Shown one piece after another: positions 1-11,852 of a stretch of DNA of 26,281 bases; position 1 is the stretch's first letter, and each line of letters opens with the position of its first letter. Below the pieces are notes generated by a model. That model saw nothing but the letters and a program-made list of their open reading frames with translations. It had not been told where the DNA came from and did no database searches. Origin of the DNA: a virus (taxonomy: Duplodnaviria > Caudoviricetes); IMG/VR virus record IMGVR_UViG_3300046786_000823, positions 1 through 26,281 of that record; one strand, 5' to 3'. Made by a program: the position numbers and the translations under genes.

Positions 1-81
1 ACAAAGCGGGGGGGGGATATTAAAATGGCAATGCACAATGATCCGATGGCAAGAAAAACAAAATACGATGGCAAAGGATAA
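1..81 (+). CDS. Possible 3' end of an upstream gene (frame 1: TKRGGDIKMAMHNDPMARKTKYDGKG*), perhaps the N-terminal part of a split methyltransferase
   Basis: Frame 1 is open from base 1 to TAA at 79-81 and overlaps the ATG at 68 of the MTase frame. It contains a G9 run at 8-16. Confidence 0.35.
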   Translation, partial: TKRGGDIKMAMHNDPMARKTKYDGKG

Positions 82-952
82 GGCGAGAACGTTTGGGCAA
101 GACCTTATGCGCGGGGAGCATAAGGTTGGGGGTAGCAGGCAAACAGAGCCGGGCCTAACGTATGTTGGCGGCGATAGAAAATATGAAGACCTTGACGAGG
201 TAAGCCGAAAGATTCTTTCGGCTTCCGAATCTGGAACCTCTATTTTTGACCCCGTGCTTTGCGAGTTGTCATACCGTTGGTTTTGCCCCGATGGCGGCAC
301 AATAGTTGATCCATTTGCAGGCGGATCGGTTCGCGGCATCGTTGCGGCGGTTCTTGGCTACAATTACGTCGGCGTTGAACTTCGCCCCGAACAGGTGCAA
401 GCGAACAGGGACAACGCGGCGGAGGTTTTTGGCGAACAGGGCAAACACCCGGTTTGGCATTGTGGCGATTCGATAGGCATTGATGAAATATGCGCGGGCG
501 TTGAGGCGGATTTTGTTTTCAGTTGCCCGCCTTACGCAGATTTGGAGGTGTATAGCGATATGCCCGGCGATATTTCAAACATGAAATACCCCGAATTTTT
601 GGACGCCTACCGAACTATCATAAAAAAGTCGGTAGGGCTGCTAAAGCCCGACCGTTTTGCCTGTTTCGTGGTTGGCGACGTTCGCGATAAAAAAGGGTTT
701 TACTACGGGTTTGTGCCGGACACGATAAAGGCGTTTGAGGATGCGGGGGCTAAATTGTACAACGAAATTGTTTTGGTGAACGTTGCCGGTAGCCTACCAA
801 TCCGCGCCGGGCGGCAGTTTTCGTCAGGGCGCAAAGTTGGCAAAATGCACCAAAACGTTTTGGTTTTCTACAAGGGCGACCCAAAGGCGATAAAGGACAA
901 CTACGGCGATATTGATTTAAGCGGATTGGAAACCGAGGTAGAGGAATTATGA
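68..952 (+). CDS. Amino (N6A/N4C-type) DNA methyltransferase domain; start uncertain because the frame is open from the window edge
   Basis: SAM-binding motif I (VDPFAGGS), GVEL, and catalytic motif IV (FSCPPY); TSIFDPVLCEL.YRWF segment typical of phage MTases. The stop overlaps the next ATG (ATGA). Confidence 0.88.
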   Translation: MAKDKARTFGQDLMRGEHKVGGSRQTEPGLTYVGGDRKYEDLDEVSRKILSASESGTSIFDPVLCELSYRWFCPDGGTIVDPFAGGSVRGIVAAVLGYNYVGVELRPEQVQANRDNAAEVFGEQGKHPVWHCGDSIGIDEICAGVEADFVFSCPPYADLEVYSDMPGDISNMKYPEFLDAYRTIIKKSVGLLKPDRFACFVVGDVRDKKGFYYGFVPDTIKAFEDAGAKLYNEIVLVNVAGSLPIRAGRQFSSGRKVGKMHQNVLVFYKGDPKAIKDNYGDIDLSGLETEVEEL

Positions 953-1656
953 AAATAACAATCGAGCGGCACTATGGCGTTAATGTATTGCGCGACGATC
1001 TTTTGCCGGGCGGCACCAAGGCTTGTTTCATCGGCGAACTATTAAAGCCGGGCTTTGATTACTATGTTTATGCTTCGCCTGTTTACGGCGCGTTTCAAAT
1101 AGCCCTTGCGGAGTATTGCAGGGAGCAAAAAAGGCGGGCCGTGATTTTTTGCGCGAAACGCAACACGCCACACGAAAACACGCTAATGGCAAAGGCTGCC
1201 GGGGCAAGGGTTTTGCAGGTGCCTTACGGTTATTTATCAAACGTGCAGGCAAAGGCAAGGGCGTTTTGTAGTGAGAACAATGGGCAGTACCTGGAATTTG
1301 GCGCTCGCGGCGAGTTGGCCGTTCAGCGAATAGCAAAAAGGGCGGCACAGGTATTTGCCGCGCTGGGCCACATCCCGGACGAGGTTTTTTGCGCAGTAGG
1401 AAGCGGGACGTTGTTGGCTGGCATAGAACGCGCAACACATGGCACGACGTGCAAAATAACGGGCATTTGTGTAGGCGCAGAATACAAACACGAAATCCAA
1501 GAAAACACAAGGTTGGTTAAATACCCGGCCAAGTTTGATGTTCCATCTAAAATATCGGCACCGTTTAAAACGAGCAGAAACTACGATTTAAAGGCGTGGG
1601 AATACTGTTTGAAGATGCGCGGCGCGGGGAGCGTTTTGTTTTGGAATGTGTTTTGA
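949..1656 (+). CDS. PLP-dependent enzyme, fold type II (ACC deaminase/D-cysteine desulfhydrase-like); candidate DNA-modification enzyme
   Basis: VLRDDLLPGGTK resembles the KRDDL..GGNK Schiff-base lysine motif; CAVGSGT is the phosphate-binding loop; NYDLKAW resembles the C-terminal PVYTGKA motif. Confidence 0.8.
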   Translation: MKITIERHYGVNVLRDDLLPGGTKACFIGELLKPGFDYYVYASPVYGAFQIALAEYCREQKRRAVIFCAKRNTPHENTLMAKAAGARVLQVPYGYLSNVQAKARAFCSENNGQYLEFGARGELAVQRIAKRAAQVFAALGHIPDEVFCAVGSGTLLAGIERATHGTTCKITGICVGAEYKHEIQENTRLVKYPAKFDVPSKISAPFKTSRNYDLKAWEYCLKMRGAGSVLFWNVF

Positions 1657-1748: not shown

Positions 1749-2204
1749 ATGAAAAACGCACAAAGTATTCACCTGCAAAAATTGTCCATCCAGAAATTCG
1801 AGTCAAACGTGCTTTCACGCGATTTTAAAATAACCGACTCTGCATCGGCAAACCGAATTGCTCGCAGGTTTTGGGACGACTCAATCGAAATTTTCGAGTC
1901 GTTTAATATCATTTGCCTGAACAAGGCAAACTGCCCCATTGCATGGGTAGAACTTTCTCGCGGCGGGTTGGACGGAACGGTGGCAGATGTTAGGATGATG
2001 TTTTCCCACGCGCTACTTTGCAACGCAGCCGGGATAATTGTTTTTCACAATCACCCTTCCGGGAACCTTCAACCAAGCCAAGCAGATTTGGCCCTGACAA
2101 AAAGAATAAAACAGGCTGGCGAAATTTTGAGCATCCCGATCCTTGACCATTTGATTATTGCCGAAAATGGATACTATTCATTCGCAGACGAGGGTACAAT
2201 ATGA
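1749..2204 (+). CDS. radC: RadC-family JAB/MPN domain protein (JAB domain only)
   Basis: E-x-F, GGLDGT.AD.R, HNHPSG..QPS.AD metal motif and LDHLII...YYSF C-terminus; lacks the N-terminal HhH region. Confidence 0.92.
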   Translation: MKNAQSIHLQKLSIQKFESNVLSRDFKITDSASANRIARRFWDDSIEIFESFNIICLNKANCPIAWVELSRGGLDGTVADVRMMFSHALLCNAAGIIVFHNHPSGNLQPSQADLALTKRIKQAGEILSIPILDHLIIAENGYYSFADEGTI

Positions 2205-2437
2205 AACACAAAGAATTGTCCAAAGCATCCCTTGCCAAACTTGCGCGTTTGGCAAGGGAAAACGACATAAAAGACGTGCAACTGGCCGAGGTTTTAAATA
2301 TCCGGCCTCAAACCGTTGGGCAAACAATGCTTGGCAAGTTTCACCCCACGTTTGACCGCGTGTTTTTATTCCTTGATGCGATAAACCAGATAGCCGGTAA
2401 AAATTACACGCTTTCGGATATTGACCCCGAAAAATAA
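2201..2437 (+). CDS. XRE/Cro-like helix-turn-helix protein
   Basis: IKDVQLAEVLNIRPQTVGQTMLGKFHPT fits an HTH pattern; ATGA-coupled to radC. Confidence 0.75.
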   Translation: MKHKELSKASLAKLARLARENDIKDVQLAEVLNIRPQTVGQTMLGKFHPTFDRVFLFLDAINQIAGKNYTLSDIDPEK

Positions 2438-2464: not shown

Positions 2465-2908
2465 ATGCCTGGGGGCAAGTCAAACATAAGAGGCACGGAC
2501 GGAAACACGTTTTCCAGCACCAACCAGCCCGCAAACCGGGGCCGGAAGCCAAAGGTATTTACCCAACTTTCAAAGGACTGGCAAGAGCGCGGCATCGAGC
2601 GGGCAACGCCAGCCGTCGTGCAAGAGGCTTTTGAGTACATACTTGGCTTGCCACTCCTTGACGTGAAAGATTTGGCTGGTAAAGCGGATGATGAGGACAA
2701 TAATGTGCCTATGGCCGTCCGTCTTGCCGCCAAAGAACTGCTTGGCAAACGGGCAATCGAAATTTTCAAAGAAATGCTCGACCGGGCACACGGCAAGTCA
2801 ATGCAAAGGCAGGAACTTTCAGGCCAGGACGGCGCTCCGCTGTTCGGAATATCAAAGGCTAAGCAAGAAGACATTGACAAACTGCTTGATCTGATGGATG
2901 GGAAATGA
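2465..2908 (+). CDS. terS: Probable terminase small subunit
   Basis: Directly upstream of and overlapping TerL; N-terminal F...NQP..RGR.P motif, LDRAHGK, and ELSG.DG.PL C-terminal motif typical of TerS-like proteins. Confidence 0.75.
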   Translation: MPGGKSNIRGTDGNTFSSTNQPANRGRKPKVFTQLSKDWQERGIERATPAVVQEAFEYILGLPLLDVKDLAGKADDEDNNVPMAVRLAAKELLGKRAIEIFKEMLDRAHGKSMQRQELSGQDGAPLFGISKAKQEDIDKLLDLMDGK

Positions 2909-4334
2909 CCGCACGCTATTGTTGCCTATTGCCGCGTCACGCCGCGAAAGACTGACCGATGAACGGCGTGCCGAACTACGCGCAAACGGGCGCATCCCAT
3001 TTCTGATAAACGATTGCTACCTGCCCCACCTGTTCAGGCCGGAGCGCATACAAATACGCTACGGCGGTTCAGCGTCCGGCAAGTCCGACGTAACGGCCAC
3101 GGAACTGCTTATGAAGGCCATAGGGCAGCCCTATTTCAGGGGGTTGTTCGTGCGCAAATACCAGATAACGGTAAGGGACAGCCAATTTGCCCTTTTCCAG
3201 GATTTGATAAAGCGCTACGGCTTGCAAGACCTGTTCCGGGTCAACAAGTCCGACATGGACATTACCTGCATACCGACGGGAAATGTCTTAATGTCTGGCG
3301 GGCTTGACGACGTGGACAAGTTGAAGTCAATACCTGACGTTACCGACATTTGGATCGAAGAGCCTATTGACCGAAAGGGCAGCGTCACAGAGGCCGACTT
3401 TACGGAACTGAACAGGCGTTTGCGCTGCGAAAAGGCATCGAACCACATTTACCTCACCTTTAACCCGATAGCCAAAGAAAACTGGATACACCGACTGCTT
3501 TTTGAGCAGAACAATTACGACGTGTTTGCGCTCAAGACAACATACCGGGACAACGCATTTTTGCCGCCGGATACCGCAGCACAGTACGAGACGCTACGGC
3601 GCACAAACCCGGACGAATACCGGATTTATGGCGATGGGGAATGGGGAAGCCTTGACGACATGGCAATGCGCCTTTTCCGGGACGAATCAATCGAAGACCT
3701 GTTCACCAATGGCGGCTTTTTGCCGGACGGCGAACGGTACATCACCGCCGACGTGGCGTTCACCGGGGCGGATATGTTCGTGGTAATGGTGTGGAGTGGC
3801 TGGAAGGTATTGGACGTTCGCGTGTTCCCACGCACCGAAGGGGATGAGATTGTGTCGAAAATTCAGGCAATAGCCAACGAGTTCGGAGTGCCTGGGCAAC
3901 GCGTGACGTTCGATGCGGGCGGCGTTGGCATCGGCTTGCGCGGCTTTCTTCGCAGCGCTATACCGTTCGTCGGGGCCGCCGCGCCGGTGGATGACGCGCC
4001 GGAAAAGACAGATTTGCAAAGGAAGATATTGCCCCGCCCGGCGTTCAAGAACCTTCGCGCACAGGCGTACCACTATGCCGCGCAAAAGGTAAACGACTGC
4101 GAAGCGGCATTTCTGCCAAAAAGCGTACATTTGCAAAGCGTATTGGCGCAAGAATTGCGGGCCATACGCCGCCTTGATACGCCGGACGGGGGGAAATACC
4201 AGATTGTCGGCAAGGATGAGATAAAAAACCGCATAGGGCGTTCGCCTGACTATGCGGACTGCTTTTCGATGCGGGCCGTTTTTGACCTTCAACAACACAA
4301 ACAACGCCGGGCGCGGTTGACGCGGGCCGGGTAA
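2898..4334 (+). CDS. terL: Terminase large subunit (PBSX/SPP1-like ATPase + RNase H nuclease)
   Basis: Walker A YGGSASGKS, Walker B IWIEE, motif III TFNP, and nuclease acidic motifs ITADVA, FDAGGVG and RSPDYAD. Confidence 0.95.
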   Translation: MGNDRTLLLPIAASRRERLTDERRAELRANGRIPFLINDCYLPHLFRPERIQIRYGGSASGKSDVTATELLMKAIGQPYFRGLFVRKYQITVRDSQFALFQDLIKRYGLQDLFRVNKSDMDITCIPTGNVLMSGGLDDVDKLKSIPDVTDIWIEEPIDRKGSVTEADFTELNRRLRCEKASNHIYLTFNPIAKENWIHRLLFEQNNYDVFALKTTYRDNAFLPPDTAAQYETLRRTNPDEYRIYGDGEWGSLDDMAMRLFRDESIEDLFTNGGFLPDGERYITADVAFTGADMFVVMVWSGWKVLDVRVFPRTEGDEIVSKIQAIANEFGVPGQRVTFDAGGVGIGLRGFLRSAIPFVGAAAPVDDAPEKTDLQRKILPRPAFKNLRAQAYHYAAQKVNDCEAAFLPKSVHLQSVLAQELRAIRRLDTPDGGKYQIVGKDEIKNRIGRSPDYADCFSMRAVFDLQQHKQRRARLTRAG

Positions 4335-7490: not shown

Positions 7491-10400
7491 ATGCCAACGC
7501 AAAAGATAATATTCCAGTTAGTTGTTGAGGATGCCGGGCTAACGTCCCGCATTGAACAGGCACGGGCAACGATCCGAAGCCTGAACAAGGAAATACGCGC
7601 CAATCCGGGGCCGGAGCGGTTTGCCGAATTGACCGGCGAACTGGCAAAGACGCGGCGCGGACTTGCCGACATGGTTGCTGAACAAAAGCAACTCAACCGG
7701 GAATTTCAGGCGTTGAAAGTCCCGAAGGACAGCCTTGCCGGGCTTCGACTTGAGTACGGGCGCTTGTCGGCAGCGCTTGCAAACCTTACGGCGGAGGAAC
7801 GTAAGTCCAAGTTCGGGCAGGCCATAATCCGGGACGCGGCACGGGTCAAAAAAGAGATTGACGGCATTGAACAGTCAATCGGGCGTTTCACGGGCAACGT
7901 CGGAAATTACCAATCGGCCCTGAACGGCATAGGCTCTGCATTCGCGGCGCTCGGCATCGGGGCGAGCATCGGCGAAATAGTCAACGCAAACGCCCGCGTG
8001 TCGGATTCGATAGCCGACGTGGCAAAAACGGCAGGCATCACTACAGACGAGGCGCAAAAACTTGCCGATACCCTTGAATTTCGGGACACGCGCACGTCCC
8101 TGGTTGACCAACTTCAAATAGCGCAGATTGGCGGGCAGTTGGGCGTAGCGCGGGAACAGTTGCTTGGTTTTACGGAAAGCGTTGATGTGCTGAATGTATC
8201 GCTTGGTGACCAATTCGGAGGCGTTGAGGAAATTACCCGCGTAATTGCCGGGCTTCGCAACGTGCTCACAGACTTTCGTACAGATGACGTTTCGGCAGAT
8301 GTTTTGAAGATCGGCAACGCGCTCAACTTCCTGGAAGCGCAGGGCGCGGCTACGGCACCTACCATTGCCGAGTTCGTAAACCGTATTTCCGGTTCGGCTA
8401 TCCCGCTTGGCGTTACCACACAGGAAATATTTGGCCTTTCGTCTGCGCTTGCCGAATTGAGCATTAACCCGGAACGCGGGGCAACCGCAATAAGCGGGCT
8501 GTTGATCGAAATTTCACGCGCCCCGGAGGTATTTGCAAAGTCGCTTGGGTTCACCAAGCAGCAAACAGAGGAATTTACCAAGCAGGTAAACACGGATTTG
8601 GTCGGGGCGCTTGCCCTTGTTTCCAAGACCATTGCAGAGGGCGGAGACGGCACAAAGAACTTTGCACAAACCCTCGACGAAATAGGCATCGGCAGGCAGG
8701 GGGCAATCGAGGCGCTCGGCAAGTTGGGCGGGAATACCGAACTGCTCACGCAGCGCATCGCTGAAAGCACGGACGCGCTGCAATCCACAGACAGCGTGTA
8801 CGCGGAGTTTGACAAAAAGAACAACAATGCCGCCGCTGCCGTCGAAAAACTCAAAAACGCCGTTGTTAACCTGATAACCAGCGAAGGGGCACAGGACGCG
8901 CTCGAAGCCGTTGCAAAGGCAGCAACCGAATTGATAAACGTGCTATCTGATACCGCCGACGTGGTGGCCGAAAACAAGGAACTGTTTGCAGCGCTTTCCA
9001 TTGTCCTGTTTTCGATGACCGGGCCGGGCAAGGCTGCCAATGCCGCAATACTGAACGTGGTGGCTTCGATGCGTGCGGCGGCGCTTGCCACAACGACAAT
9101 GACCACAGCGACGGCGGCAAATACCGTGGCCACGAACGTAAGCGCAGCCGCTACACGCGCCCTTGCAGCGGCACAGGCGGCGCTACCGTTGCTCGCATTG
9201 GTTGCAGGCATCTACCTTGTCATAAAGGCGTTCGATTCGTACAACAACTCGCTTAGCGCAGCCGAAAAGGCAAGCCGGGCCGTATCCGAAGCACAAAAAG
9301 ACATTGCCGAATCCAGCGCAGCGGAAATTGTTGCCCTTGAGTCTTCGATAGGGGTTCTCAAGGAATCAACGTCAACGCAGGAACAGCGGGCTGCGGCGAT
9401 AAAGTCGCTTACGGACAAGTACCCGGAATACCTGAAAGGTATTGACCTGGAGACGCAAAGCGTTGCCGCACTTACGACAATTCAGCGTGAACTTACAGAG
9501 GAAATAATCCGGGGCGCGGCGGCGCGGGCAAAGACGGCGGCGCAGGAGACTATCGTAAGCAAGATAATCGAAAAGGAGTTAAAGGTGGCCGAACTTCGCC
9601 GGTCAATCCAGGCGGGTGAGTTTTCGTTTCAGGATCGAGAGTTTATTATTGGCACAGAGACGGCCAAACTTGCCAAACTTCGTGAAGAACTGGAGCAGAC
9701 AGGCAAGCAGTTTGACGATGTTTTCAAACTCAACCAGCCCGTAAAATCTTCGGTGCTGCCTGTTGTTGACCCAAAGGCAATTCAGGGACAAGGCGACGCG
9801 GCAAAAAATGCAGCCAAAAAGGTCGGCGAAGAACTGACCAAAGAAGAAAAGGCAGCAGCCGACAAAGCCAAAAAAGAGCGTGAACGGGCAGCCGACAAAG
9901 ACAAAAAAGAGCGTGAACGGGCAGCCGATGAAGAAGCCAAGCGCGTAGAGGATCAGCAAAAGCGTATCCTTGACATTCAGCGCACGGTGCGTGACCTGAA
10001 CATCACAGAGGAAAGCGAGTTTCAGCGCAAGGTTGAAGAACTGGACAACCGCCGCACGGATGCACTCACACAGAACCGACAGCGCATTGACGCGCTACGC
10101 AAGACGGTAGAGGATCGAACCGGCACTAAGATCACGGGAGACGTGTCCACCGGCGCGGCGCTTGCCGCACAGATACCGAACGCCCGACCGGCGGACATTA
10201 CAGAGGCCAATCTGATTGACGCGGAAACAGAGGCGCTGAAAAAGTCGTTCGACAAGCAGCGCACGGAACTTTTCGCCGAACGCAAAAAGACGCAGGAAGC
10301 ACAGGAAGCGCAACTACGGCAACTGCTTGCCGAGACTGCACAGATAGCCGCCGATAACGAGGCACAGGTAGCCGTGTCCGTTCAACAGGACGTACAAAAA

Positions 10401-11852
10401 TCGTTCACGGAACGGCGCGAACTGATTGAAAAGGAGTTTGCGCTACGGCAGTCTGCCAACGAAACGGCATTGGTGCGCGGCGAGATCAACCGAAAGGAGT
10501 TTGAACAGCGCGAACTTTCCGACAGCATCGAGCAGACAAACCGGAAACTTCAACTCGAAACCGAATACGCAACGCGCATTTCCGAAATCGTTACGCAGGT
10601 GCGTGACGTGAAGGTGGCAGCCGCACAGGCCGAACTTGACGCGCAACTGCTTGCGATTGAACAGCGCAGAAAGCAGGACGTTACCGGGGCAGAAACAACG
10701 GCAAAGGAAACCGGAACGGACGCAAGTGCGCAGGTGTCGGCTATCAACGAAAAAGCGGCAACGGATGCCGATGCAGCACAGATACGTTTTGCCGATGCGG
10801 TGAAGCAAACGACCGAGGATGCAAAGGCAACGCAGTTGCAGGCGATTGATTCGGTAGACGCGGCAAGGCAGGTGGCCCATGATGCCGAACTTGCCCGCGC
10901 AGAGGAGGAAAAGCAAAAGCGGGCCGAAATCCGAGACGCGGCAATAAGCACCGCCGGGGAACTTGCATCGGGCATTCTTGCCATTCAGCGCAACAACGAT
11001 GAAGCCGAAAAAGAGGAAAAACTGGCTGCCATTGATGAAGAGTACGAAGAAAAGAAGAAAGCCGCGCAGGGCAACGCCAAACTGATCGAAAAACTCGAAA
11101 AGGAGCAGGCGAAGAAAAAGGAGGCTGTTGAAAAGCAAGCCGCCGAAAAGCGCAAGCAGCAGGCGATTATCGAGGCCATAATCAACACCGCGCAGGCAAT
11201 TATCAAAGCAGCACCAAACCCGATACTCATGGCCTTTGCCGCCGCCGTCGGGGCTGTTCAGGTGGGCGTTATTTCTTCGCAGAAATTTGCCAAAGGCGGT
11301 TTCACGGACAAGGACGGCGAAACTGGAATCTACCCGAAGCCGCTGTACGATGCGCTGCCAGACTTTACGCTGGGCGGAATGACGGGGGCCGGAACTTCAC
11401 ACCGTGACGACACGGGCCGCCGTGTAGCCGGGAAAATTCCAGGCAGCAACGCCGTGGTACACGCCGGGGAGTATGTCGCACCCGCTTGGCAGGTGCAGGC
11501 AATGCCCCAACTTTTCGGGGGGCTGGATCAGCAGCGCCGCACCCGTTCAAAGCCTTTTGCACAAGGCGGGTTTACAAAGAAAAATTTTGGTAACTTTGTG
11601 CATGTTAAGCCGTATGCAACCGGCGGGTTTTCGGATCCGATAATCGGGCTGCCAAACTCCACCGAATTTCAGCGGCAAACGATAGCCGTGACGGCATCGG
11701 CTGAATTTACCGACGCGCAGGTTGCACAGATTGGCCGCATAATTGCACTTGAAAACGGTCGGGTTGTGCGCACGGCGATTGGCGAAGGGCTTGGGGACGC
11801 AAACCGGCGCTTGGAGCGGGAACGCTCACTTGAGGAACAAAGAACAATTTAA
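7491..11852 (+). CDS. Tail tape measure protein
   Basis: 1453 aa, Ala/Glu/Lys-rich and helical; F.GNVGNY motif, TP901-like core, hydrophobic segments, and C-terminal FAKGG/VVHAGEYV motifs. Confidence 0.93.
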   Translation: MPTQKIIFQLVVEDAGLTSRIEQARATIRSLNKEIRANPGPERFAELTGELAKTRRGLADMVAEQKQLNREFQALKVPKDSLAGLRLEYGRLSAALANLTAEERKSKFGQAIIRDAARVKKEIDGIEQSIGRFTGNVGNYQSALNGIGSAFAALGIGASIGEIVNANARVSDSIADVAKTAGITTDEAQKLADTLEFRDTRTSLVDQLQIAQIGGQLGVAREQLLGFTESVDVLNVSLGDQFGGVEEITRVIAGLRNVLTDFRTDDVSADVLKIGNALNFLEAQGAATAPTIAEFVNRISGSAIPLGVTTQEIFGLSSALAELSINPERGATAISGLLIEISRAPEVFAKSLGFTKQQTEEFTKQVNTDLVGALALVSKTIAEGGDGTKNFAQTLDEIGIGRQGAIEALGKLGGNTELLTQRIAESTDALQSTDSVYAEFDKKNNNAAAAVEKLKNAVVNLITSEGAQDALEAVAKAATELINVLSDTADVVAENKELFAALSIVLFSMTGPGKAANAAILNVVASMRAAALATTTMTTATAANTVATNVSAAATRALAAAQAALPLLALVAGIYLVIKAFDSYNNSLSAAEKASRAVSEAQKDIAESSAAEIVALESSIGVLKESTSTQEQRAAAIKSLTDKYPEYLKGIDLETQSVAALTTIQRELTEEIIRGAAARAKTAAQETIVSKIIEKELKVAELRRSIQAGEFSFQDREFIIGTETAKLAKLREELEQTGKQFDDVFKLNQPVKSSVLPVVDPKAIQGQGDAAKNAAKKVGEELTKEEKAAADKAKKERERAADKDKKERERAADEEAKRVEDQQKRILDIQRTVRDLNITEESEFQRKVEELDNRRTDALTQNRQRIDALRKTVEDRTGTKITGDVSTGAALAAQIPNARPADITEANLIDAETEALKKSFDKQRTELFAERKKTQEAQEAQLRQLLAETAQIAADNEAQVAVSVQQDVQKSFTERRELIEKEFALRQSANETALVRGEINRKEFEQRELSDSIEQTNRKLQLETEYATRISEIVTQVRDVKVAAAQAELDAQLLAIEQRRKQDVTGAETTAKETGTDASAQVSAINEKAATDADAAQIRFADAVKQTTEDAKATQLQAIDSVDAARQVAHDAELARAEEEKQKRAEIRDAAISTAGELASGILAIQRNNDEAEKEEKLAAIDEEYEEKKKAAQGNAKLIEKLEKEQAKKKEAVEKQAAEKRKQQAIIEAIINTAQAIIKAAPNPILMAFAAAVGAVQVGVISSQKFAKGGFTDKDGETGIYPKPLYDALPDFTLGGMTGAGTSHRDDTGRRVAGKIPGSNAVVHAGEYVAPAWQVQAMPQLFGGLDQQRRTRSKPFAQGGFTKKNFGNFVHVKPYATGGFSDPIIGLPNSTEFQRQTIAVTASAEFTDAQVAQIGRIIALENGRVVRTAIGEGLGDANRRLERERSLEEQRTI
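9855..9929 (+). repeat. 33-bp in-frame tandem repeat (AADKAKKERER / AADKDKKERER / AAD) in the tape measure gene
   Basis: Units at 9855-9887 and 9888-9920 differ at one base; a partial third copy follows. Confidence 0.9.

Follow-up and report, generated by a model that had tools for sequence, protein, structure and literature searches.

At the left end of a 26,281-nucleotide virus sequence (IMG/VR record IMGVR_UViG_3300046786_000823; hereafter "the window", meaning the whole stretch analysed), a gene for a protein of the methyltransferase (MTase) fold overlaps a gene for a compact pyridoxal 5'-phosphate (PLP) enzyme. The record is linear, has a CheckV completeness of 38% and is identical with the window, so that there is no upstream contig to inspect. 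The MTase-fold gene occupies positions 2..952 (+ strand; listed as an open reading frame (ORF) of 304 aa from the ATG at 38, 38-952) and encodes the motifs DPFAGGS and FSCPPY. The PLP gene follows at 949..1656 (+ strand; 235 aa), with the motifs RDDLLPGGTK and GSGT. They meet in an ATGA overlap at 949..952 (+ strand), the junction reading TTATGA, in which the MTase stop codon TGA (950-952) is entered by the PLP start codon ATG (949-951); this arrangement suggests translational coupling. An initial annotation of this DNA had described both the overlap and a position about 0.8 kb before the terminase genes, and both are confirmed, the putative small terminase gene beginning 809 nt past the PLP stop. 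Related loci supplied 34 called pairs of an MTase gene and a neighbouring PLP gene (ORF starts taken as the first ATG, GTG or TTG), of which 13 overlap, 20 are spaced by 0-2 nt and 1 by 77 nt. Since tight spacing recurs in 33 of the 34 pairs, the overlap in the window is not a matter of chance.

The 5' end of the MTase gene has to be read differently from the initial annotation, which placed the start at position 68. The reading frame contains no stop back to base 2, beside a run of G at the start of the record, and the N-terminal block PPFSVLDT..WQxRKRxW of MTase relatives is absent from the window protein. For these two reasons we consider the gene most likely to be 5'-incomplete, cut by the end of the record. 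Positions 1-40 open with the G run (gcgggggggg), and the stretch that reads WQxRKRxW in relatives reads WQCTMIRW here; the record end may therefore hold sequence errors in addition to truncating the gene.

The PLP protein matches the Pfam family PALP (5.2e-13, 49.4 bits; cut-off 35). Its own family comprises 845 proteins at E<=0.001 among 2052 candidates, and the 120 listed span 228-262 aa. Across 25 aligned members, R15 D16 D17, G21 G22, K24, GSGTL, NYD.K and FWNV are invariant, and the C-terminus carries the signature APF..S.NYDLKAWE...FWNV. K24, within RDDLLPGGTK, is predicted to be the Schiff-base lysine and GSGT the phosphate loop. K24 aligns with the region of the PLP-binding lysine of TrpB and falls at most 2 residues off K36 of gp52 from Pseudomonas phage M6 in an hhalign alignment. 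As described for gp52 by Lee 2021 (PMC8989533), K36 is the likely Schiff-base lysine, the purified enzyme decarboxylates C-alpha-glycinyl-thymidine in DNA to 5-aminoethyl-deoxyuridine (5-aminoethyl-dU), and the related gp226 of phage ViI was modelled on the structure 1j0a.

We then asked which proteins the family most resembles. A sequence search of the PDB with the window protein (phmmer) returned no match at E up to 1, and the only PDB entry reached by the family profile was TrpB (E 0.005). All NCBIfam equivalogs scored far under their cut-offs, and the best of them reached 32.8 bits against 266 (threonine synthase), 19.1 against 421 (IlvA) and 17.9 against 350 (SbnA). The AlphaFold2 model (pLDDT 91.0, pTM 0.85) had only fold-type II matches in Foldseek, the best, at a TM-score of 0.83, being 1j0a, a Pyrococcus homologue of 1-aminocyclopropane-1-carboxylate (ACC) deaminase; identity to all matches was 12-20%. 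The top BFVD match to the model was an 810-aa viral protein with 33% identity.

The comparison with gp52 gave stronger signals. The window protein matches phrog_7093 at 1.2e-30, with residues 8-234 covering positions 15-277 of the 279-position profile, and M6 gp52 (YP_001294560) matches the same profile over its full length at 2.2e-159. Aligned directly against gp52 with hhalign, the PLP family scores a probability of 97.5% (E 6.1e-12, 219 columns), and the C-terminal motif APFP..YDLKAW...FWN is common to both. A tblastn search of 50,697 phage records found true homologues in three, Microcystis phage Mae-JY30 and the two Erythrobacter phages R6L and ZS04; ranked just below them came gp52 of phage M6 and its counterparts in M6 relatives (23.5% identity over 78% of the query, E 8e-3). 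The initial annotation had suggested comparing the PLP protein with M6 gp52 and ViI gp226 on the one hand and metabolic ACC deaminases on the other, and the comparison favours the DNA-acting decarboxylases: on profile and alignment evidence its nearest characterised relative is gp52, not a metabolic deaminase. The window protein shares the full-length profile and the fold of gp52-type enzymes but not their genomic company, to which we return below. We regard it as a compact and hitherto undescribed branch of the gp52-type enzymes.

The upstream protein matches the Pfam family N6_N4_Mtase (PF01555) at 8.7e-13 (49.2 bits, gathering cut-off 26.7) and two PHROGs, phrog_12517 (1.3e-99) and phrog_498 (2.8e-85). 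PF01555 was the only family reported at E up to 0.01, and the protein shows no membership in families of the spermidine synthase type. Its motif order is permuted, motif I (DPFAGGSVRG) lying ahead of motif IV (FSCPPY). The nearest solved relatives are beta-class DNA amino-MTases (TTHA0409, N4-cytosine MTases and CcrM), to which its two halves match in swapped order. Motif IV of the N6/N4 DNA amino-MTases is defined as (D/N/S)PP(Y/F); the window protein departs from it in its first residue, a Cys. This CPPY is a family trait: it is present in 45 of 45 distinct partner MTases of PLP loci, in 73 of 73 high-scoring segment pairs (HSPs) linked to the S-adenosylmethionine (SAM) decarboxylase genes described below, and in 72 of the 80 HSPs of loci found with the MTase as seed, the other 8 giving no pattern match. 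CPPY MTases are frequently fused to a ParB-like N-terminal domain, and their family is far bigger than that of the PLP proteins, with at least 595 relatives and, by estimate, about 2200 viral stretches.

Viral contigs were scanned for PLP genes with an alignment-based query, which was needed because a single-protein query found nothing there. This gave 168 pattern matches, of which 115 were confirmed as relatives and 80 loci were kept. A window-type MTase, scored at >=40% identity, accompanies the PLP gene in 51 of the 80: it lies upstream within 150 nt in 41 loci, upstream at 151-2000 nt in 8, and downstream on the same strand in 2. It was absent from 26 loci with >=900 nt of upstream room and from 3 without room. 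The MTase is the sole conserved neighbour of the PLP gene across the 80 viral loci. In cells the PLP family is scarce, with 35 loci among 185,579 species (one genome per species). At the closer bacterial loci (L085-L102) the MTase adjoins the PLP gene in 17 of 18 cases, the exception being a 1.5-kb contig. Fifteen distant cellular loci (27-37% identity), from Bdellovibrionota, actinomycetes, myxobacteria and a Vampirovibrionales metagenome-assembled genome (MAG), have no MTase. Those distant homologues that were checked as examples (from L103-L116 and L118; about 265 aa) have a cytochrome c gene and a divergent LysR regulator as neighbours, and the distant cellular proteins may be metabolic ancestors of the viral family.

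In some loci the two domains are also joined in a single protein. ParB-MTase-PLP fusions were found in P0124 (734 aa), in gp1 of phage R6L (830 aa) and in L073 (948 aa), and an MTase-PLP fusion in L123 (571 aa). In P0121 and P0122, a sister MTase with SPPY for CPPY (hhalign 91% to the CPPY family) is fused to the PLP domain, and in P0123 the PLP domain follows an N-terminal domain of no known type. The most intimate arrangement is that of gp70 of the Pseudanabaena phage Pam4 (L202:3044-5533; 829 aa), in which the PLP domain is inserted within the MTase itself, behind a ParB-like N-terminus, and separates the half with motif I (residues 320-388) from the half with CPPY (644-818). In Mycobacterium phage Vincenzo (L285:1-2275), gp1 (ParB plus CPPY MTase) is overlapped by gp2 upstream of terS; gp2, missed by tblastn, is a divergent member of PALP (2.5e-10 in Pfam) and reaches the PLP family in hhalign with 94% (E 1e-7). 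It is annotated as a "carboxylate deaminase". The initial annotation had proposed a test of the co-occurrence of MTase and PLP genes across viral genomes, and the pairing is upheld by 51 of 80 viral loci, 17 of 18 closer bacterial loci and the fusions. The R6L fusion carries just the label "DNA modification methylase" where it is named in the R6L paper (PMC5463345).

In three loci a gene for an AspH-like 2-oxoglutarate (2OG) oxygenase (PF05118, 5e-17) lies between the MTase and PLP genes (L049:4859-5989, L050:5387-6517 and L068:8868-10004) and may add a further tailoring step. Several other ORFs between or after the two genes had no Pfam match. Sulfur chemistry was considered and rejected: a PAPS-reductase-like gene lies six genes from the R6L fusion (L084, 3810-4853), with no conserved link elsewhere.

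PLP genes also occur in other surroundings. In L077-L082 (e.g. L078:9677-11900), where there is no CPPY MTase, the PLP gene stands in a row of thioredoxin, PLP, dUTPase and S-AdoMet lyase-like (PF23780, 1.6e-10) genes, another SAM-linked context. In L031, L035, L036 and L043 (at about 8700-10700) it is divergent from a gene for a D12-class, Dam-like MTase with a Rho_N domain, and L031 holds a second N6_N4 MTase nearby, among glycosyltransferase genes. A conserved ORF of about 690 aa without a Pfam match precedes longer variants of the PLP protein (270-353 aa) in L045, L047, L056, L059, L060 and L067, which are a giant-virus MAG and large viral contigs with genes for a ribonucleotide reductase small subunit, a TFIIB-like protein and glycosyltransferases nearby. 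The PLP family thus also occurs in nucleocytoplasmic large DNA viruses. The partners of such MTase-less PLP genes were considered as MTases and rejected, hhalign showing no MTase likeness for either the 695-aa giant-virus ORF or the P0123 N-terminus.

A second type of decarboxylase was found in the place of the PLP enzyme. A tblastn search of cultured phages with the window MTase brought up Croceibacter phage P2559S, in which gp66 encodes a CPPY MTase and shares its last 38 nt with gp67, the gene for an AdoMet_dc protein (PF02675, 2.1e-19; L201:3374-5015). A viral scan seeded with gp67 gave 103 pattern matches and 99 relatives, from which 80 loci were kept (L203-L282), 77 of them with >=900 nt upstream. 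A CPPY MTase is present in 73 of the 80 and absent from 7; in 68 it lies directly upstream on the same strand, with a gap of -22 to +42 nt, and in 5 at a distance of 359-1031 nt. The sequence ESHFAIHTFPE, which we take to be the self-processing site of class 1b SAM decarboxylase (AdoMetDC), is retained in 79 of the 80 loci. The two decarboxylases were never found together: tblastn for AdoMet_dc gave nothing in the 80 PLP loci, and the PLP profile gave nothing in the 80 AdoMet_dc loci. The P2559S AdoMetDC had no tblastn match in the MTase-seeded loci either.

The P2559S homologue restores spermidine in Escherichia coli lacking speD (Li 2023, PMC9992855), and on the strength of that complementation the P2559S enzyme is a real SAM decarboxylase. 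Other phage homologues in the same study had turned into arginine or ornithine decarboxylases. AdoMetDC activity in the relatives of gp67 that are 50-65% identical is accordingly likely, not certain. Li 2023 (PMC9992855) assigns phage AdoMetDC to polyamine metabolism, in a text that nowhere uses the term "methyltransferase". The linkage of AdoMetDC to CPPY MTases seems to be unreported.

To compare the MTases of the different modules, each MTase HSP was assigned to a group according to the gene that follows it (83 PLP, 71 AdoMet_dc and 60 solo, after 5 without room had been dropped). Removal of duplicates left 188 rows (76 PLP, 57 AdoMet_dc, 55 solo); as loci were picked by similarity to one seed each, sampling in the tree is uneven. 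In the FastTree phylogeny the AdoMet_dc-linked MTases form one side of a branch with a support of 100, and in a quick IQ-TREE run on 85 rows (28 random rows per group plus the window) the same branch has an SH-aLRT value of 100.

Motif I separates the same clade. PLP-linked and solo MTases share the loop LDPFAGGSVRG, with G96 and R99 in 76 of 76 and 55 of 55 sequences, respectively, and neither group has other changes. The AdoMet_dc-linked MTases read FDxFAGD(S/T)VFG, with G96D in 57/57 and R99F in 56/57; they further show GDS changed to DDG (G143D, 57/57), Y110F, W140Y and F261M. The CPPY motif is unaltered in all three groups. The window MTase thus has no acidic residue in its glycine-rich cofactor loop (GGSVRG), and only the AdoMet_dc-linked clade has an Asp there, in 57/57. 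In spermidine synthase, Asp127 presumably belongs to the glycine-rich loop, where an acidic side chain would keep SAM out, a rule of exclusion that PMC4356361 does not contain. What is described there for the Plasmodium enzyme is that the aminopropyl nitrogen of decarboxylated SAM (dcAdoMet or dcSAM) is held by Asp127 and Asp196 (PMC4356361). Loss of an invariant Arg together with the gain of two Asp is the pattern expected of a switch from SAM to dcSAM.

We looked for the genomic company of gp52 in five pair-carrying records. Mae-JY30 and R6L are cultured phages with complete genomes; the other three come from IMG/VR, have completeness values of 100%, 92% and 74%, and include two proviruses. 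Genes for M6 gp51 (aGPT-Pplase2), gp54 (5-hydroxymethyl-deoxyuridine (5-hmdU) kinase) and the thymidylate-synthase/hydroxymethylase family were found in none of the five, in a search whose thymidylate-synthase part was positive in 10 of 14 control genomes and whose single-protein gp51 and gp54 parts had limited reach. No such pathway genes are conserved within 10 kb across the 80 PLP loci. By these searches, and with the window itself holding just 38% of its genome, the thymidine pathway of the M6/ViI type does not accompany the MTase-PLP pair. With no other conserved pathway genes around the pair, nothing but SAM suggests itself as the origin of an alpha-amino acid group for the PLP enzyme.

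We therefore propose, as the reading that fits best but tentatively and with the doubts still outweighing our confidence, that the MTase-fold enzyme uses SAM as donor of an aminocarboxypropyl group, which it attaches to a base, and that the PLP enzyme decarboxylates the adduct to an aminopropyl group. In such a scheme the group passed from SAM to a DNA base by the CPPY enzyme would be 3-amino-3-carboxypropyl, and decarboxylation of the bound amino acid by the PLP enzyme would follow on the DNA. In the AdoMet_dc-linked clade SAM would be decarboxylated first, leading to the same aminopropyl product, and MTases without an adjacent decarboxylase would leave the carboxylated adduct on the DNA. We infer the central parts of this scheme: that an aminocarboxypropyl (or aminopropyl) group and not a methyl group is moved, that the PLP enzyme is a decarboxylase acting on DNA after the transfer, and which base and atom are modified. 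Extended to the whole family, the proposal is more tentative still: the widespread CPPY "orphan ParB-methyltransferases" upstream of terminase genes would be DNA aminocarboxypropyl or aminopropyl transferases, served by a gp52-like PLP enzyme or a phage AdoMetDC, and would give rise to N-(3-aminopropyl) bases, a class of cationic hypermodification that would be new and need just two enzymes.

Several observations lead to this scheme. The PLP protein is homologous to a decarboxylase of DNA-bound amino acids, and its coupling to the MTase extends to fusion and insertion. Two unrelated decarboxylases occupy one slot behind one MTase family, which suggests that decarboxylation is part of the MTase's own SAM chemistry. 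Each type has a characterised relative that acts on a nucleoside-bearing amino acid, SAM in the one case and a DNA-bound amino acid in the other. The PLP-linked MTases keep the SAM-type loop and have a gp52-like partner, which fits decarboxylation after transfer, and the altered loop of the AdoMet_dc clade fits decarboxylation before it. The oxygenase between the genes in three loci fits a tailoring pathway.

A number of points weigh against side-chain transfer. For a PF01555 protein, methylation is the default expectation, and we found no characterised member of the CPPY family in the open-access literature (PMC, bioRxiv). To our knowledge there is no precedent for aminocarboxypropyl or aminopropyl transfer to DNA, and the contact of R99 with the SAM carboxylate is one that we infer from its position in motif I. 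The pairing is also incomplete on both sides. On the PLP side, 26 of the 80 loci lack a CPPY MTase up to 10 kb away although they have room for one, and among the 80 best MTase loci (77 with >=800 nt of downstream room) a PLP gene follows in 19 by tblastn and 20 by profile. At the remaining loci the MTase is followed by small ORFs and terminase genes; the number of such "solo" MTases is an upper bound, because the PLP partner in Vincenzo escaped tblastn. In the FastTree phylogeny, PLP-linked and solo MTases are intermixed, with 25 changes, at least 7 of them forced by well-supported branches (15 changes, at least 4 forced, in the IQ-TREE run), and a scan of alignment columns for positions that split PLP-linked from solo MTases found none. 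Given the intermixing and the lack of a separating column, the simplest view is that the PLP-linked and solo enzymes have one chemistry. The solo majority, indistinguishable from the PLP-linked MTases, would then need a carboxylated adduct that nobody has reported.

In the main alternative, the upstream enzyme would be an ordinary N6-adenine or N4-cytosine DNA MTase, and the PLP enzyme, like AdoMetDC, would decarboxylate or consume free SAM and so starve SAM-dependent host defences, as an anti-restriction device. Such a strategy would resemble that of the T3 SAM lyase, the phage MTase still methylating, possibly from decarboxylated SAM in the AdoMet_dc clade. We judge this unlikely, yet serious enough to be weighed in full. 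It agrees with PF01555 membership, with DNA amino-MTases being the nearest solved relatives, and with the intermixing of PLP-linked and solo enzymes, and it explains well why most CPPY family members stand alone beside terminase genes. The altered loop of the AdoMet_dc clade would also suit a methyl donor without a carboxylate, the S-AdoMet lyase-like gene of L077-L082 lies near PLP genes, and the P2559S AdoMetDC, as characterised in PMC9992855, acts on free SAM. However, the PLP-linked MTases keep the solo-type cofactor loop in 76/76 sequences, and a SAM-destroying domain fused to, or inserted in, a SAM-using enzyme would oppose its own partner. The characterised relative gp52 works on a DNA-bound substrate (PMC8989533), and the oxygenase between the genes in three loci would be left unexplained.

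Far less can be said for a role of the PLP enzyme in clearing S-adenosylhomocysteine (SAH) by PLP-dependent elimination, which would keep a high-flux phage methylase active. The PLP domain does have links with no fewer than two MTase subfamilies (CPPY and SPPY) and has the Dam-like D12 MTase as a neighbour in L031, L035, L036 and L043, and its best NCBIfam match is threonine synthase, a fold-II gamma-elimination enzyme, at a score (32.8 bits) far below the cut-off of 266. We know of no SAH lyase of the PLP-elimination type, and SAH removal explains neither the replacement of the PLP enzyme by a SAM decarboxylase in the same slot nor its homology to a decarboxylase; we regard it as very improbable.

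The initial annotation had proposed a candidate DNA hypermodification module with an MTase that could methylate the amine of a hypermodified base. The module as such stands in part, on the kinship to a DNA-acting decarboxylase and on the conserved pairing; its thymidine-type pathway does not, with M6-type genes in none of the five records. In full, that pathway would use 5-hmdU, a kinase, an amino-acid:DNA transferase and a PLP decarboxylase before methylation of the resulting amine. The homology of the PLP protein to M6 gp52 is in its favour, but no gp51-, gp54- or thymidylate-synthase-family genes were found in the pair-carrying records or conserved within 10 kb of the 80 loci, and two of those records are proviruses, which are hard to square with wholesale replacement of dTTP. 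We give this pathway scarcely any credence. Nothing points to methylation of such an amine, and the context favours an MTase that itself supplies an amino-acid-like group from SAM. Finally, an auxiliary metabolic role functionally separate from the methylase (as ACC deaminase, D-cysteine desulfhydrase, cysteine synthase or threonine dehydratase), suggested by the fold, by database names such as "threonine dehydratase", "cysteine synthase" and "ACC deaminase-like" and by the LysR and cytochrome c neighbours of the distant cellular homologues, is highly implausible in view of the absence of any NCBIfam equivalog near its cut-off or PDB sequence match (profile match only at E 0.005), the low structural identity (12-20%), the small size (235 aa, where such enzymes have roughly 300-340 aa), the conserved adjacency to MTases and the cases of fusion with them or insertion into them, and the rarity of the family in cells (35 loci in 185,579 species), where the closer members are MTase-linked.

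Downstream of the pair, the window continues with a gene for a RadC-like JAB protein (1749-2204; PF04002, 1e-37) and a small helix-turn-helix (HTH) gene (2201-2437), which together separate the PLP gene from the terminase genes. Conservation of these two genes (window 1749-2437) alongside the MTase-PLP pair was not found. The putative small terminase (2465-2908) is named by its position only, as it matches phrog_15125, of unknown function, and has no Pfam match. It is followed by TerL (2898-4334; Terminase_3, 7.9e-48). The remainder of the window consists of structural genes, including those for a tape-measure protein and an S49 protease. A Bacteroidota phage is a plausible source of the sequence, because the nearest cellular copies sit in Ferruginibacter and Chitinophaga.

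If transfer of the SAM side chain is correct, the pair would constitute a minimal and portable two-gene route to cationic hypermodification of DNA, with SAM as the alkyl donor. Some two thousand viral "DNA methylases" would have to be annotated anew. Among the "polyamine" genes of marine phages the commonest is AdoMetDC; it would take on a second meaning, which would account for the many phages that carry it without a spermidine synthase. The restriction, CRISPR and sequencing behaviour of carrier phages would be affected, and the enzymes would offer a new handle for site-specific amine labelling of DNA. Should the upstream enzyme instead be a methylase with a SAM-consuming partner, a decarboxylase built into a SAM-dependent enzyme would still be an unexplained and testable form of SAM manipulation by phages. 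Every variant of the module is represented by cultured phages, so either possibility is directly testable: MTase and PLP genes are separate in Mae-JY30 and Vincenzo, fused in R6L and ZS04 and nested in Pam4, P2559S has the AdoMetDC version, and Listeria phage B054 and Enterococcus phage phiFL3A have the MTase alone.

We found no description of an MTase-PLP or MTase-AdoMetDC pair as a DNA-modification module in the open-access literature (PMC, bioRxiv), and several known systems resemble it in part. With M6 gp52 and ViI gp226 the PLP protein shares a PHROG (phrog_7093), a full-length profile match, fold-type II, a lysine near the N-terminus, the C-terminal APFP..YDLKAW..FWN and a place in phage genomes near packaging genes. 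It differs from gp52 in sequence (23.5% identity) and size (235 aa against 278 aa), and its partner is an MTase-fold enzyme rather than the 5-hmdU kinase, aGPT-Pplase or radical-SAM isomerase of M6. The gp66-gp67 pair of P2559S has an MTase of the same family (44% identity, FSCPPY), the same overlapping gene order, a position upstream of terminase genes in many relatives and a host in Bacteroidota. Its decarboxylase, however, is an unrelated pyruvoyl enzyme, and its MTase belongs to a separate clade in which GGSVRG has become GD(S/T)VFG.

Beta-class DNA amino-MTases (PF01555; for example TTHA0409, 2zie, CcrM, 6pbd, and N4-cytosine MTases, 8s9n) resemble the window MTase in an FxGxG-type motif I loop, a PPY motif IV and the alignment of both halves. 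The CPPY family departs from them in its permuted order (motif I before motif IV), in an invariant Cys for D/N/S and in an often ParB-like N-terminus, and its link to a decarboxylase is not known for that class. For the proposed chemistry the models lie elsewhere. SAM-dependent aminocarboxypropyl transferases act on tRNA and rRNA (Tyw2, Tsr3 and TapT), and aminopropyltransferases of the spermidine synthase type likewise have an MTase fold or bind SAM and pass the propylamine part of (dc)SAM to a nitrogen nucleophile. The dcAdoMet used by the latter is made by AdoMetDC, and its amine is held by acidic residues (PMC4356361; PMC11107197). The window MTase is unlike both groups in having no sequence membership in them, and the acceptor would be DNA. 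The use of carboxy-SAM in phage DNA modification by enzymes of the CmoA/CmoX type, as outlined in PMC12783734, is similar in that a non-methyl group comes from a partner-made SAM derivative; there, the enzymes and the chemistry (C5-carboxymethylation) are different. The module would be of a kind already known, phage DNA hypermodification with a PLP decarboxylase, while transfer of the SAM side chain would be new chemistry on DNA.

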